From the IMG/VR virus record IMGVR_UViG_2537562189_000009: a DNA stretch of 64,000 nt; one strand, given 5' to 3'. The notes beneath the pieces are model-generated. The model worked only from the letters and a program-made list of their open reading frames with translations. It made no database searches and was not told the origin of the DNA. Source of the DNA: a virus (lineage: Duplodnaviria > Heunggongvirae > Uroviricota > Caudoviricetes). Both the position numbers and the translations under genes were made by a program. Positions 3,084 to 7,878 of this stretch are shown here, in pieces. The first letter of the stretch is position 1; each line of letters starts with the position of its first letter.

Positions 3084-3335
3084 TTATTCTCCTGAAAAAG
3101 CAGAAAAGCCAGCTTTTATTCCGATCTCTTTCAATGCCTGTAATGAAGTGACAAACTCACCTTCGCGCAAGATAAATCCGTCCGTGACCCGAGCATCCAC
3201 AAAATTAATTAACGCAGCCCCATTCTTTCGCAAACACATAATGCGGTAATGACTAACAAGATTTCCATTTTCAACGCACACAGCATAGAGGCCATCTTCA
3301 CAAAAAATTTTACGCAGTTCTTCGATGTTCATCAT
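3084..3335 (-). CDS. rem: Rem-like protein (83 aa)
   Basis: Sequence MMNIEELRKIFCEDGLYAVCVENGN... matches Qin Rem from memory; located downstream of hok. Confidence 0.7.
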   Translation of the reverse strand: MMNIEELRKIFCEDGLYAVCVENGNLVSHYRIMCLRKNGAALINFVDARVTDGFILREGEFVTSLQALKEIGIKAGFSAFSGE

Positions 3336-3454
3336 CAGAATCCTTCCGGATAATTAGCTCTCCCCTTTAAGGGACCATCCCTCTTATCCCTGCGCGCTAC
3401 TTAAGTATTTTTGATTCTATTCCGGCACCGTCCAGAACTTCAAACGCGTTAGAA

Positions 3455-3483
3455 AACTAAAAACAAAAACCCGCCGAAGCGGG
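3455..3483 (-). terminator. Intrinsic terminator downstream of hok copy 1 (same motif near 4070-4097 for copy 2)
   Basis: Minus-strand hairpin CCCGCTTCGGCGGG (plus 3470-3483) followed by a U-run. Confidence 0.5.
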
Positions 3484-3553
3484 TTAAGTGCGAGTGCGTT
3501 GAGGATGCCTGCCACATCAGAGGTGGCGAGGGATTTCTCCCTCGCCGGGTCTC

Positions 3554-3709
3554 TTACTCCTCAGGTTCGTAAGCTGTGAAGACAGCGACCTCCGTCTGGC
3601 CGGTTCGGATTCGTACCTCGCAGAGGTCTTTCCTCGTTACCAGTGCCGTCACTATGACGGTTAAACAGATGACGATCAGGGCGATTAACATCGCCTTTTG
3701 CTGCTTCAT
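3554..3709 (-). CDS. hok: Hok-family type I toxin (51 aa), copy 1
   Basis: MKQQKAMLIALIVICLTVIVTALVTRKDLCEVRIRTGQTEVAVFTAYEPEE; the track ORF 3554-3766 adds an in-frame mok-like leader. Confidence 0.8.
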   Translation of the reverse strand: MKQQKAMLIALIVICLTVIVTALVTRKDLCEVRIRTGQTEVAVFTAYEPEE

Positions 3710-3759
3710 AGCCTGCTTCTCCTTGCCTTTCGGCACGTAAGAGGCTAACCTACATGTGT

Positions 3760-3951
3760 CTAGCATACAAACTCACCTTCGCGCAAGATAAATCCGTCTG
3801 TCACTCGACCATCCACAAAATTAATTAACGCAGCCCCATTCTTTCGCAAACACATAATGCGGTAATGACTAACAAGATTTCCATTTTCAACGCACACAGC
3901 ATAGAGGCCATCTTCACAAAAATTTTTACGCAGTTCTTCGATGTTCATCAT
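3760..3951 (-). pseudogene. Truncated duplicate of rem (63 aa)
   Basis: First ~60 codons almost identical to rem; reading frame runs into the duplication joint and ends ...REGEFVC. Confidence 0.6.
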
Positions 3952-4167
3952 CAGAATCCTTCCGGATAATTAGCTCTCCCCTTTAAGGGACCATCCCTCT
4001 TATCCCTGCGCGCTACTTAAGTATTTTTGATTCTATTCCGGCACCGTCCAGAACTTCAAACGCGTTGAAAATAAAAACAAAAACCCGCCGAAGCGGGTTA
4101 AGTGCGGGTGCGTTGAGGATGCCTGCCACATCAGAGGTGGCGAGGGATTTCTCCCTCGCCGGGTCTC

Positions 4168-4323
4168 TTACTCCTCAGGTTCGTAAGCTGTGAAGACAGC
4201 GACCTCCGTCTGGCCGGTTCGGATTCGTACCTCGCAGAGGTCTTTCCTCGTTACCAGTGCCGTCACTATGACGGTTAAACAGATGACGATCAGGGCGATT
4301 AACATCGCCTTTTGCTGCTTCAT
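4168..4323 (-). CDS. hok: Hok-family type I toxin (51 aa), copy 2
   Basis: Protein identical to copy 1; upstream leader 4381-4512 is homologous to the leader of the hok locus at 30383-30571. Confidence 0.8.
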   Translation of the reverse strand: MKQQKAMLIALIVICLTVIVTALVTRKDLCEVRIRTGQTEVAVFTAYEPEE

Positions 4324-4768
4324 AGCCTGCTTCTCCTTGCCTTTCGGCACGTAAGAGGCTAACCTACATGTGTCTAGCATGAAATTGGCCTCAGATTAAT
4401 GTTAAGCGTCTTGCAGGACGCGTAATGTTAACTGGGGCTTTTCTCTATCTGCCGTTGGTATTCATGCCCGAGGCAGATAGCCTCAAGCACCCGCAGGCAT
4501 TCTACTTAACTCCCGTTATCTCGCCAATATGAAATCAGTCAGAAAGGCGATCCATAAGAATAACAGAACAATAAATTACCCGCACCACCGCAATAGTCAG
4601 CGAACATTTAAGAACCAACATGACAGCCTCCCACATTTAAAGTACGTATGTTCTAATAAATATAAATGGCATGATTCTGCGAAATACTTACATAAGCAAT
4701 TCGCTCAAATCTGACTGTCAGTTTTGAGCGAGAAAAATGATATCTACATATCTATCAAATTACAAATC

Positions 4769-6493
4769 TTAAAGCCTAAAAAACTTATCGTCCTCCCCAA
4801 GCTCAAGCACAACACTATTATTTATGAAGTCTTGATCAATATTCTCCAACTTGTCTTTAAGAATAGCCAATATATATTGACCATTAATCCCCGAAGCTAT
4901 CTCGAATAACTTATTTATTTGATTTACATGAATTGCCTCAATTCCATCATGAGCTATAAAACGTGGTGTTCTGGCTTCTAAAGACTCCTGGACAGATAAA
5001 TAGGCAAAATCTAAAGAGGCAACCTGGGCTTTCTTTTTTCCTTCTCCCTGATTACCTGATGTGAGCAAAGTTCCTAAAGGTTCAATGGTAAAAACGAAAG
5101 AACCGGAGGAATCTTTATAGGAAAGAATATATTCATCCTGATATAATTTTTTAGTATATAAAGAAAAATAGGAATTGAATAGCGCAAGACGTTTGTTAAA
5201 ATCGTCAAGTTTAGATTTTAATCTATCTGACACATCATTAAACTTTGCTTTCAGTATATTAAAGTTGTTCTCCATCTCTTGGATTTGAAGTAGTCCAGCT
5301 TCAAGCCCACCTTTTTCTTCAAATAATGAATTTAATTTTTTTTGCATTATTTGCAGGTCTGCCAATGTCCCATGCGAAGACAAACTCTTTAAAAGCTCTG
5401 ATTCTTGAGTCAATAAGTTATTTAGTTCATCTTTATATTTGGAAATTTCTTGCAGCACTGGCTGCATTTGTTTTCTAATAAACTCAGCTTTTTTTACAAG
5501 CATTTTATTATGAAACGAAAGTAGCTCAGTAAACTCTTTGTTTAAGTTACCTAACCGATCAGTTGCTTCTAAGTACAACTTCTGTAGATCTAGTGTATTT
5601 ATATTTTCATGACTTTTTTCCAGATCTAGTATAGCCTTATCGTTTAATTTTTGCTTAAACTCCAAAGATGATAGTATGATAGAAACTTCACTAATTTTAA
5701 TTTTTAACTCATTTAACTCAGCAAGCATATCATTATAAGAGTCTGCCACTTGAAAATTAGAAATTAACTCTTCTTGTGCTATAATATCTCTATTTATAAT
5801 TGCAATAGCTTGTTCCAAAGCATTCTTTGAGCGATGGCGAGTAATTACTTCATAATCGGATTTCGCCAGTTTATAGGCTTTAGTCACTGACTGTTTTTCA
5901 TCCAGAATCTGTGAGTTACCGAACCCAAACATAAACAGATTTAACGTTTCATATTGTGTATTAGAACCCATTTTTATCGTTTTTAATGCGTTCGACATCT
6001 TGTCATGCGTATTTCGAATAACACGTCCCATAATCTCTCGTATGGTCGGTTTTATCGCGGAATCAAGATATAATGTTCTTTTTAAAGCCTCGTTGAAATC
6101 TTTAGCCTTCGTATAGGACTCTTCATTTATTGAGGCTATAACCTTCGTTTTATTAGTCTCAGATGTAATTTTACGCTTAATTTTTATTACTGGTGCAGTT
6201 TTATTATTCAAATCTTTTGTGAGAATTAAACAAAACTCAATCTCGTTCTCTATCAAATAATTTTTTATAACCGAATTTTCTTTCTTGAATTCAGGATCGG
6301 TATAAAAATTCAGTTGTTCTGCTCCAAAACAAAAATCTAAAGCTCTTAATACAGTAGTTTTTCCCACACCATTTCCAGTTTGCTCTTTGCTGGAGGTGTT
6401 TCGGTCAATAATCAAATTAACGCCAATGTGAAATTCGATATCACGAATCACTCCAAGCCTGAAAGAACTGACTATTAGCCGTTTCAAAAACAT
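4769..6493 (-). CDS. SMC/ABC-like P-loop ATPase with long coiled-coil (574 aa), candidate defence core
   Basis: N-terminal Walker A GNGVGKTT then LRALDFCFG (SMC/RecF/Rad50-like head), ~350 aa heptad-rich middle, C-terminal RFIAHDGIEAIH; start overlaps upstream ORF by 10 nt. Confidence 0.7.
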   Translation of the reverse strand: MFLKRLIVSSFRLGVIRDIEFHIGVNLIIDRNTSSKEQTGNGVGKTTVLRALDFCFGAEQLNFYTDPEFKKENSVIKNYLIENEIEFCLILTKDLNNKTAPVIKIKRKITSETNKTKVIASINEESYTKAKDFNEALKRTLYLDSAIKPTIREIMGRVIRNTHDKMSNALKTIKMGSNTQYETLNLFMFGFGNSQILDEKQSVTKAYKLAKSDYEVITRHRSKNALEQAIAIINRDIIAQEELISNFQVADSYNDMLAELNELKIKISEVSIILSSLEFKQKLNDKAILDLEKSHENINTLDLQKLYLEATDRLGNLNKEFTELLSFHNKMLVKKAEFIRKQMQPVLQEISKYKDELNNLLTQESELLKSLSSHGTLADLQIMQKKLNSLFEEKGGLEAGLLQIQEMENNFNILKAKFNDVSDRLKSKLDDFNKRLALFNSYFSLYTKKLYQDEYILSYKDSSGSFVFTIEPLGTLLTSGNQGEGKKKAQVASLDFAYLSVQESLEARTPRFIAHDGIEAIHVNQINKLFEIASGINGQYILAILKDKLENIDQDFINNSVVLELGEDDKFFRL

Positions 6494-6720
6494 AATATCA
6501 AATCTCCATTTTCGTTAGCATCAACCAGGCCTAATAAATATAGCCAATTTAAAGTGTAAATATATTGCGTGAATGAAGAGTTGTTATTTTTAGATTTGAA
6601 TTCATTATACAAGTCTATAATATCAACATACGAATAAGCATTTGAACTCATGCATTCTAATAACCGAGCCCCCAGGTAATACAAGGTTTGGCTTGGTTTT
6701 GTTACATCAGAGATAATCAT
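6484..6720 (-). CDS. Small operon partner (78 aa), unknown function
   Basis: Translationally coupled by 4-nt overlap upstream and 10-nt overlap downstream; no histidine; no motif recognised. Confidence 0.5.
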   Translation of the reverse strand: MIISDVTKPSQTLYYLGARLLECMSSNAYSYVDIIDLYNEFKSKNNNSSFTQYIYTLNWLYLLGLVDANENGDLILCF

Positions 6721-7313
6721 ATTGGTTTTTCCAGAATCTTACACTCTACGAATGCATGATAAACGATAAAAGAAGCATGGCATTCGATTTCTTCGCTTGT
6801 GTAATTCATTGCCATAAGAGAATTTAAGCATTTCTTAATGATGTGCTCTATTACACTGTCTATTATCCAATCTGCAAACTCTCTTACCAATTGAATCTTT
6901 AAATTATTCCGTTCCTGAGCATCCTTGCAGCTCTTATACGCTTCTCTATGTTTAAGTAATAAATCTCCTTGACAATCAAGATATCGTGAATTGATGCTTT
7001 TCAGTGCCGTTTCCTTAGCAGTAGGCATACTTTCATTTAATGTTTCATACGCTTTATCTATCATCGAAGAATATAGATAGAACCCTTCAATACGTTCTCT
7101 ATGTTTTATAACATCATTGAAGTCTATTTTATTCTCAATATCATATGGCTCGTAGTCATTGTTTGTACGAGGATCAATAACATTCGAATCAACTAAAATA
7201 CCAACAAGATCCATAAAAATCGATGGAGACTTTATAATATCAACAGAGTTAGAATCGACAACCACCTGCACATTACGTGAGTAATTCCCTGACCTTTGAG
7301 TAACACCAACCAT
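6717..7313 (-). CDS. Operon partner (198 aa), unknown function
   Basis: Abuts the 81-aa ORF and overlaps the 78-aa ORF; several conserved-looking Cys/His/Glu but no recognisable nuclease or enzyme motif. Confidence 0.5.
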   Translation of the reverse strand: MVGVTQRSGNYSRNVQVVVDSNSVDIIKSPSIFMDLVGILVDSNVIDPRTNNDYEPYDIENKIDFNDVIKHRERIEGFYLYSSMIDKAYETLNESMPTAKETALKSINSRYLDCQGDLLLKHREAYKSCKDAQERNNLKIQLVREFADWIIDSVIEHIIKKCLNSLMAMNYTSEEIECHASFIVYHAFVECKILEKPI

Positions 7314-7315
7314 GA

Positions 7316-7561
7316 TCAGCCTCGCTTGTTTTCATTATTTCCAAAAACGACCGTCTGATTATTTTTTGAATGGCTACCGCTTTTTTGAATTATTGTATGC
7401 CCTGAACTTTTTTTATTAACAATAAATGTACCTAAAAATGTTACAAGAAAGCTACCAGAAGTGAACATCAATGGCACACTATTGAAGTGATATGCAGCAA
7501 AGCCAGCGCAAGCAACGAATGTCAAAGAAAATATTCTAATCATAATTCGGATCATAGCCAC
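7316..7561 (-). CDS. Small membrane protein (81 aa, two predicted TM helices), first gene of the operon
   Basis: Hydrophobic stretches IRIFSLTFVACAGFAAY and FLVTFLGTFIV; followed by a ~317-bp AT-rich upstream region (likely promoter). Confidence 0.5.
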   Translation of the reverse strand: MAMIRIMIRIFSLTFVACAGFAAYHFNSVPLMFTSGSFLVTFLGTFIVNKKSSGHTIIQKSGSHSKNNQTVVFGNNENKRG

Positions 7562-7878
7562 ATCCTGTAAGTACTGTTGTCATCTTTTAGTGATTCTTGA
7601 ATCCCATACTATACAAAAGCTTATCCATCTTTTGTACAAGCTTCCGCTTTGAAAGTGACATTATAAAGTAACTACAACTTAGAGTGCATCCCCCTAAATA
7701 TCTCCGATGGTGATAGTTGCTGGCTACAACTTACTTTCATAACCAACTAACTGGCTTGCTCTGCGTTAATTAGTGCATAGGAATGTCAGCATTATCCGCT
7801 CTTGGCACAAACCAAACGACCACGCTAGCGCTAATCTTGTGCCACGAAAATGTCAATTCACATCTGAACTAATGCTCT

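Follow-up and report, generated by a model that had tools for sequence, protein, structure and literature searches.

An ABC-3C/Lamassu-type operon of a Qin-like prophage with a candidate split-off membrane effector sharing a motif with its CTD10 protein

Introduction

A prophage-borne operon of four genes, carried on the 64,000-nucleotide virus record IMGVR_UViG_2537562189_000009 (Caudoviricetes; this whole stretch is referred to here as the window), encodes a DUF2326 ATPase, an MC6 protein, a CTD10 protein and a small membrane protein. The operon is almost certainly an ABC-three component (ABC-3C)/Lamassu-type system. A short motif is common to the tail of the small membrane protein and the N-terminus of the CTD10 protein, a feature missed by the initial annotation of this DNA, which was made without database searches. 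The balance of the sequence evidence leans towards a prophage-borne ABC-3C or short Lamassu-type abortive-infection system with a split-off effector that is coupled by this shared motif, and the small membrane protein is, with comparable likelihood, the motif-coupled effector of the system. Amyloid-like templating as the form of that coupling is a more tentative suggestion.

Shared motif of the small membrane protein and the CTD10 tail

The match between the two window proteins is, in short, IIQKSGSHSKNNQTVV versus VTQRSGNYSRNVQVVV (z=6.9), in which NVQVVV of the CTD10 protein corresponds to NNQTVV of the small-protein tail. The alignment extends over 20 amino acids with 9 identities and a BLOSUM62 score of 48 (z 6.9, p<=1e-4), where z and p throughout derive from local alignment against composition-preserving shuffles. 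The pair falls within the criterion of Dyrka for an amyloid-signalling pair, namely at least 15 amino acids and a score of at least 40. On the CTD10 side Q16 of the motif is invariant, with Q6, G9, S12 and N14 nearly so.

The sequence of the motif varies between lineages while matching within each locus, and unrelated lineages keep the pairing with entirely different motifs. Among related loci (numbered here with the prefix L), the CTD10 protein and the small tail read NIQNNYL and NTQNNYF in L002 (score 50, z 7.9), and STNTQNI and STNTQTI in L008 (score 53, z 9.1). The small protein and the CTD10 protein carry GSVSVGRDNNGGIIN and GSVAVGGDNNGLLIN in L018 (score 62, z 7.6), TGYQAENMTVNN and TGYQADRMTVHN in L020 (score 63, z 10.6), and GKNSQQAMGDITN and GPNSQQAFGDIVN in L023 (score 63, z 9.2). 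Further pairs are found in L021 (score 55, z 6.9), L025 (score 42, z 4.4) and L024 (score 39, z 4.0). The pairing is present in every enterobacterial clade, with the cognate score exceeding the non-cognate score in 3 of 4 clades. When statistically weak pairs are included, it recurs in all 21 of the examined loci in which the CTD10 protein is unfused, and in none of the 5 in which it is fused to another domain.

At identical residues of the paired motifs the same codon is used in 42 of 82 cases (4 of 9 in the window), so it is the protein sequence whose similarity has been maintained. This codon divergence rules out that the motif similarity stems from a recent duplication or from gene conversion. 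As a pattern in the sequences the paired-motif, split-effector design has solid statistical backing, and as a mechanism it is plausible.

In L021 an Agp-like PIN-TPR-GreABC gene and an 86-amino acid, small hydrophobic transmembrane (TM) partner (6159-6419; 6401 onward) are located directly downstream of the ABC-3C four-gene system. The motifs paired in this Agp-like system, DHGSVAVGGDANAPITV and NNSSIAIAGDANAPVSI, differ little from those of the ABC-3C pair beside it (GSVAVGGD...), which gives circumstantial support for an amyloid-type coupling. Cross-talk, or effector modules common to two sensor families, is a possibility at this locus. No match to the Agp-like query was found among INPHARED phage records.

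Exchange of fused effectors for the small membrane protein

Distant relatives of the ATPase, at 28-36% identity, fall into two architectures, a three-gene and a four-gene one. In three-gene systems the CTD10 protein has 264-328 amino acids and begins with either an HNH-like domain (L015-L017) or a SMEK_N domain, the latter on a Priestia plasmid (L031) and on C. botulinum pCLJ (L032), both encoding SMEK_N-CTD10 proteins. Four-gene systems, on the other hand, possess a small open reading frame (ORF) that abuts or overlaps a short CTD10 gene. Loci were scanned with a narrower CTD10 alignment, the broad alignment of 52 sequences being too diverse for this purpose. The architecture count comprises 21 unfused loci with upstream sequence and the 5 fused loci, L015-L017, L031 and L032; uninformative loci, namely L022 (upstream sequence cut), L028 and L029 (broken CTD10 ORF) and L033 (degraded ATPase), were left out.

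A small TM ORF lies upstream of the CTD10 gene in 21/21 unfused loci, and a credible small upstream ORF was found in 0/5 of the HNH- or SMEK-fused ones. The fused effector is therefore replaced by the tail together with a small membrane partner, in a strict either/or relation. HNH and SMEK are listed among the effectors of short Lamassu (Haudiquet et al.), and the domains of the fused relatives are exactly of these types. A frameshifted TM-CTD10 fusion was considered for the four-gene form and is ruled out, as the two ORFs are in different frames, are separate in 21/21 loci and have no fused form among 149 family representatives.

The small membrane protein

The small protein is composed of two hydrophobic helices (~1-22 and ~27-46) followed by a hydrophilic tail rich in Q, N, G and S. 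It had been described as an 81-amino acid protein with two TM segments; the two helices stand, while translation most likely starts at the ATG at 7555 to give 79 amino acids (MIRIMIRIF...). This start is favoured because an AGGA lies 7 nt upstream of it and because both the RefSeq/PGAP call and the homologues have 79 amino acids. The protein is conserved at 35-46% identity, directly upstream of the CTD10 gene, in 13/13 enterobacterial loci. Across all loci the small partners range from 57 to 104 amino acids, each combining a hydrophilic Q/N/G/S segment with strongly hydrophobic helices, one or two in number.

The window protein could be assigned to no Pfam, PADLOC, NCBIfam or PHROG family. A sub-threshold match to Pfam Hol_Tox ("putative holin-like toxin") covers residues 31-50, in the second helix (E 0.014, 15.7 bits, cut-off 23.3).

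The CTD10 and MC6 proteins

Both proteins had been regarded as partners without a recognisable motif, a description that does not stand, since each exceeds a curated Pfam cut-off. The 198-amino acid protein matches CTD10 ("C-terminal domain 10 of ABC-3C systems") with 42.1 bits against a cut-off of 28.1, over residues 36-195. Only ~35 residues precede this domain, and the first 25 match no family. In the AlphaFold2 model residues 1-25 are disordered (predicted local distance difference test, pLDDT, <50), and the remainder forms an all-helical domain with helices spanning 29-190. Homologues all have 195-199 amino acids, and the short form is thus native rather than a truncation. The protein can be considered an LmuA equivalent that lacks an enzymatic effector domain. 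A Foldseek search with its model returned only YydB (9a6c_B), weakly (probability 0.99, E 0.3), and a PDB profile search with the CTD10 alignment gave nothing meaningful.

An exhaustive CTD10 profile search, with clusters defined at 50% identity, yielded 502 cluster representatives, the short form being present in 140 of the best 149. In 134 of the 140 short representatives, N, Q and G together account for 32% of the first 30 residues versus 13% of the rest. Charged residues (K, R, E and D) form a fraction of 0.17 in the short tails versus 0.30 elsewhere, and recurring tail patterns include IKGNNNQQAGGNITN and NSGNNSGVIASNIGTVNV.

The 78-amino acid protein matches MC6 ("ABC-3C middle component 6") with 50.8 bits against a cut-off of 27.2, over residues 7-77, and corresponds to LmuC. 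In each related locus its gene is flanked by those of CTD10 and the ATPase. RefSeq/PGAP calls a protein of 55 amino acids from a later start, leaving a gap of 65 nt (L001, 11085-11252). This call is probably too short, because the Pfam family spans almost the whole of the 78-amino acid ORF, which overlaps the upstream stop codon (ATGA).

The DUF2326 ATPase

The initial annotation placed an SMC/Rad50-like ABC ATPase at the core of a defence-type operon, and this assignment is borne out by family and fold alike. The protein matches Pfam DUF2326 with 52.9 bits (curated cut-off 28.7), and its best PADLOC match is the candidate PDC-M68B, over the full length (2.8e-41). The PADLOC LmuB profiles match weakly (E 6e-4 and 0.085). 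PADLOC models were matched by the ATPase alone, with none for MC6, CTD10 or the small protein, and among the four products PHROGs recognises only the ATPase (phrog_5467, a family of unknown function). None of the four falls into an NCBIfam family. The profile matches lend no support to Septu, PARIS, Gabija or Wadjet, which had been set aside by eye; the PADLOC AriA profile gave a weak match to the ATPase (6.6e-4).

An AlphaFold2 model of the ATPase, built from 72 homologues (pLDDT 85; predicted template modelling score, pTM, 0.71), contains an N-terminal head (~1-190), an antiparallel coiled coil of ~260 residues (~194-451) and a C-terminal head (455-574). A CxxC zinc hook is absent. With Foldseek against the PDB the top match is B. 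subtilis YydD (9a6c_A, E 7e-21), followed by five Lamassu LmuB structures with E values of 2e-14 (9uxh_F) and 1e-12 (9hqu_A) to 4e-11, the others being 9hqx, 9nyg_B and 9ux7_A. YydD and LmuB outrank cohesin, condensin, Rad50 and JetC. A PDB search at the sequence level returned coiled-coil noise only, with no match to the solved LmuB chains. The ATPase is consistent with an LmuB-equivalent, SMC/Rad50-like sensor.

The motifs reported from the initial reading, GNGVGKTT, LRALDFCFG and the C-terminal segment SGNQGEGKKK...RFIAHDGIEAIH, are all present. The first of these is a Walker A motif, Gx4GK[S/T] (G40-K45-T-T), of which G40, N41, G44, K45, T46 and T47 are invariant in the 72 homologues. The C-terminal motifs had been judged non-canonical, and they are indeed divergent, yet they are not absent: the signature-like N481-x3-G485-x-K487 is invariant in the same homologues, as are D516 (the Walker B aspartate), E519, H522 and Q525. 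The motifs of the C-terminal head are hence divergent and strictly conserved. The Walker B consensus of the family is FILHDQ, that of the window and its clade FIAHDG (hhhhDG). In short Lamassu, Walker B has been given as hhhhD[Q/S/T/E] (Haudiquet et al.), with which the Q after D516 in the family consensus agrees.

Relation to known systems

In the literature ABC-3C is a synonym of type II Lamassu, itself part of the Lamassu superfamily, and RefSeq/PGAP already names the three core genes "ABC-three component system" proteins. The operon had been put forward as a candidate undescribed defence system. With three of its four proteins in curated Pfam families, RefSeq names for ABC-3C and an ATPase matching the PADLOC candidate PDC-M68B, the core three genes are already described and the operon is an ABC-3C/short-Lamassu system, not one of an undescribed kind. 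The evidence does support the accompanying guess of a Lamassu-like or ABC-three-component-like arrangement in which the membrane protein acts as effector.

The operon resembles short or type II Lamassu (LmuACB, DdmABC) in harbouring an SMC/Rad50-like ATPase of ~570-600 amino acids with an LmuB fold match, an MC-family middle component and a third protein with an ABC-3C C-terminal domain. In addition, it is mobile-element cargo, and abortive infection would be expected. It differs in that its LmuA equivalent has a ~25-residue tail instead of an N-terminal enzymatic domain, the defining feature of LmuA, and in the possession of a fourth gene, that of the small membrane protein. Furthermore, its ATPase is barely detected by the PADLOC LmuB profile (6e-4), and its Walker B reads hhhhDG. 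The immediate relatives are the three-gene systems of HNH- or SMEK-CTD10, MC6 and DUF2326 proteins (B. subtilis YydB/C/D-type; PDC-M68), with ATPases of 28-36% identity. Unlike the window operon, these lack a small membrane gene and have the effector, nuclease-type or SMEK, fused to CTD10.

In Clade O of Haudiquet et al., which occurs in >40 species, LmuB is short, LmuC is intact and of LmuA only the C-terminal domain is left. To judge from this clade description rather than from a sequence list, the window family very probably is, or overlaps, Clade O. The words 'membrane' and 'transmembrane' are absent from the text of Haudiquet et al., which mentions no membrane partner or shared motif. The literature searched, to which the founding ABC-3C paper did not belong, contains no link of amyloid motifs to Lamassu, ABC-3C, CTD10 or DUF2326.

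Amyloid signalling in fungal and bacterial NLR systems makes use of either a fused effector domain or a short motif together with an adjacent effector gene. The Bab/Agp system of E. coli causes abortive infection by amyloid signalling. Its 109-amino acid, membrane-targeting protein has a C-terminal motif of ~20 residues, the adjacent sensor has the same motif at residues 2-25, T5 infection triggers a sensor-dependent assembly of the motif, and beta-breaker mutations abolish defence against T5. Compared by description, the window operon is similar to Bab/Agp (BASS11) in its adjacent genes, its small membrane-targeting effector candidate with a C-terminal motif and the sensor-side copy at approximately residues 2-25. 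A ~20-residue, N/Q/G-rich, lineage-variable motif is shared with Bab/Agp, the NLR/Bell BASS pairs and fungal NWD2/HET-S, while BASS and FASS pairs likewise alternate between a motif with a separate effector and a fused effector domain. The differences lie in the sensor, which in the window is an SMC-like ABC-3C complex rather than an NLR/STAND or TPR-GreAB-PIN protein as in Bab/Agp and the NLR pairs. Unlike in BASS pairs, the window motif is placed on the adaptor, that is the CTD10 protein, and not on the sensor ATPase, and the effector candidate of the window family is a bare TM peptide of one or two helices rather than a Bell/HeLo domain. The published partners of BASS11 (TIR, CHAT and EAD7, as well as NACHT and NB-ARC) do not include ABC-3C.

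Proposed mechanism and alternatives

In Lamassu, two LmuB protomers and LmuC sequester the C-terminal oligomerisation domain of LmuA, until the sensing of DNA ends frees LmuA to form a tetramer through that domain, whereby the N-terminal effector becomes active. By analogy with these solved complexes, a dimer of the DUF2326 ATPase with MC6 would, at rest, hold the CTD10 protein sequestered and monomeric. On sensing of phage DNA ends or replication intermediates the CTD10 protein would be freed and would self-associate through its helical domain, clustering the disordered, N/Q/G-rich tails of ~25 residues where its relatives cluster HNH or SMEK domains. The clustered tails could then adopt a cooperative beta (amyloid-like) fold, which would recruit and template the matching C-terminal tail of the co-translated 79-amino acid membrane protein; this protein would become a membrane-disrupting oligomer and the infected cell would die. 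In general terms, an SMC-type DNA sensor may signal by prion-like amyloid templating, the freed adaptor nucleating the motif and converting a membrane peptide of 60-100 residues into a lethal assembly, a model whose chance of being correct is put at somewhat under even. All of its steps, from the trigger through release, oligomerisation and cross-beta templating to damage of the membrane, are predictions drawn from comparison of sequences, as is the anti-phage phenotype.

A number of observations weigh against this model or parts of it. The Foldseek search with the CTD10 model gave no match to the solved LmuA C-terminal domains, which leaves self-association of the CTD10 protein as an assumption, and the residue after D516 in the window ATPase is G, outside the Q/S/T/E reported for short Lamassu. 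Within the motif data, the pairs of L026 (z 1.0) and L027 (z 2.7) are statistically weak because of the low complexity of their tails, and the clade of L004 and L010 scores 33-35, short of the 40 required by the published criterion. A Pfam scan at E<=1 assigned the motif to no known amyloid-motif family, its resemblance to RHIM-like Q-V-V cores being by eye only, and the small protein does not have a domain of the Bell/HeLo type. In the high-GC lineages L018 (563-877) and L021 (2757-3065) the small protein has the order TM helix, motif, TM helix, which fits a simple templating of tails less neatly because the motif is in a loop and not at the C-terminus. Finally, the literature searched reports no experiment on any DUF2326/MC6/CTD10 system.

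The shared motif could instead serve attachment, a fixed, stoichiometric pairing of beta-strands anchoring the CTD10 protein, and with it the ABC-3C complex, at the inner membrane. The small protein would then be a localisation subunit, with toxicity residing elsewhere, for example in the ATPase complex on DNA. Motif pairing and translational coupling are as compatible with such a constitutive heterodimer as with templating, and a motif in the loop between TM helices, as in L018 and L021, suits docking. However, the strict either/or relation with HNH and SMEK argues for the tail and the small protein as the source of the effector function, searches of the operon with Pfam, PADLOC, NCBIfam and PHROGs turned up no further candidate for a toxic domain, and N/Q/G-rich, charge-poor tails are typical of self-templating motifs rather than of docking peptides; a purely anchoring role is considered unlikely. 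More improbable again is a regulatory role, in which the tail of the small protein mimics the CTD10 N-terminus and competes for the ATPase-MC6 site, setting a threshold in the manner of an antitoxin. The presence of one short motif on two proteins would agree with this, as would the known use of sequestration and release by Lamassu. Yet what is sequestered in the solved complexes is the C-terminal domain of LmuA rather than the N-terminal part, and a decoy would leave both the universal TM anchor unexplained and the system without any effector.

Two further explanations are given very little probability. According to one, the similarity is a functionless remnant of an ancestral TM-linker-CTD10 protein that was split or duplicated, as the adjacency of the genes and the position of the motif exactly at the junction ends of both proteins might suggest. 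No fused TM-CTD10 protein is present among the 149 family representatives, however, and lineage-specific, covarying pairs persist across proteins that are only 25-30% identical, while roughly every second identical residue is encoded by different codons in the two copies, a sign of purifying selection on each of them. The other, no more credible, takes the operon for a module of prophage or plasmid maintenance, lysis timing or superinfection exclusion, with an SMC-like ATPase and a holin-like peptide, and finds some support in the location in the prophage early region next to hok and rem, in the sub-threshold Hol_Tox match (E 0.014) and in the relatives on plasmids. Against it, the operon's proteins have domains from the families of ABC-3C/Lamassu conflict systems, the cassette moves as a unit among P4-like and P2-like elements, integrative islands, plasmids and chromosomal sites, and its neighbours include AbiEii and an Agp-like system, with no partition or lysis partners travelling along.

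Implications

The evidence suggests that the apparently effector-less Lamassu clade, or a very similar one, is not without an effector, which would be a tiny separate membrane protein that was overlooked by annotation and is tied to the sensor complex solely through the common motif of ~20 residues. What is new is the mode of effector attachment, by a paired motif and a split effector, the core being already known. If the coupling does proceed by amyloid-like templating, the 'effector-less' clade would be explained, and amyloid signalling would reach beyond NLR and TGP sensors as a general, modular route by which unrelated bacterial immune sensors fire membrane-killing effectors. The coupling would be of a widespread, plug-and-play kind, with hundreds of short-CTD10 clusters and several motif classes, one of them common to a neighbouring Agp-like system. 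A single E. coli prophage operon would provide a compact four-gene test bed, and detectors of defence systems should then take in small unannotated ORFs and paired terminal motifs.

Operon layout and genomic setting

By ORF translation of the window, the minus strand carries all four operon genes, from 7561/7555 down to 4769 (Table 1). The tight packing of four co-directional ORFs described initially holds in detail: a gap of 2 nt separates the small gene from the CTD10 gene, the CTD10 and MC6 genes overlap by 4 nt (ATGA), and the MC6 and ATPase genes overlap by 10 nt. The four genes are translationally coupled. They are real genes, since conserved homologues of all four products, at ~50% identity or lower, are kept in the same order. 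The AT-rich character of the segment is likewise evident, with a GC fraction of 0.28-0.37 over 4600-7800 versus ~0.49-0.54 in the flanks. Within the leader, a presumed promoter region, a TATAAT can be seen by eye, but a scan of its 317 bp for the sigma-70 consensus gave no strong or convincing site.

Table 1. Features of the four-gene operon in the window
Feature	Start	End	Strand	Remarks
AT-rich leader, presumed promoter region	7562	7878	-	317 bp, 5' of operon; GC 0.37-0.43
Small membrane protein gene	7316	7555	-	79 amino acids from ATG; 81 if read from GTG 7561 (to 7316)
Effector-side motif copy	7334	7393	-	Small-protein residues 55-74, IIQKSGSHSKNNQTVVFGNN
CTD10 protein gene	6717	7313	-	198 amino acids
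Sensor-side motif copy	7245	7304	-	CTD10 protein residues 4-23, VTQRSGNYSRNVQVVVDSNS
MC6 gene	6484	6720	-	78 amino acids
DUF2326 ATPase gene	4769	6493	-	574 amino acids

The neighbours of the operon are genes of a Qin-like lambdoid prophage integrated beside rspB. The gene order in the window is rem-hokD, the four-gene operon, then DUF977 and replication genes. At the equivalent position, between hokD and the immunity/replication genes, K-12 Qin has rem-hokD-relE-relB-ydfV-flxA, in agreement with the hok-to-replication cargo slot recognised in the initial annotation. The view of the operon as horizontally acquired cargo at a prophage hotspot is supported.

The cassette is rare, being present over at least 80% of its length in 17 of 5,426 complete E. 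coli genomes, and a close relative of the 198-amino acid protein occurs in only 4 of ~100,000 species representatives, all Enterobacterales. Neither the operon nor the ATPase has a match, as DNA or as protein, in INPHARED phage records. In P4-like satellites (L003, L009, L014) the four-gene cassette is situated between the integrase and psu/ogr-delta; in the P2-like L006 it adjoins P2 gpA and a Dam methylase, and in L020 AbiEii and an integrase. Relatives are also found on plasmids and integrative islands. In E. coli KK05-19 (NZ_CM144239.1, 4724185-4729047) an IS3-family element with its transposase splits the cassette match in two (hits H4 and H5). A degraded relative is located on the Acinetobacter seifertii plasmid pAS78-1 (L033, 2501-4302), where the annotation divides the DUF2326 ATPase between two ORFs and lists no MC6; close by are a YoeB/Phd toxin-antitoxin pair and a restriction S subunit.

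The rem-hokD segment of the window, just downstream of the operon, has undergone a tandem duplication of ~615 bp (3151-3753 and 3767-4367, 98-99% identical). Two identical Hok-type ORFs result (3554-3766 and 4168-4380), along with one full and one truncated copy of rem. The E. coli locus L001, otherwise identical to the window, has only one rem and one hokD in its annotation.

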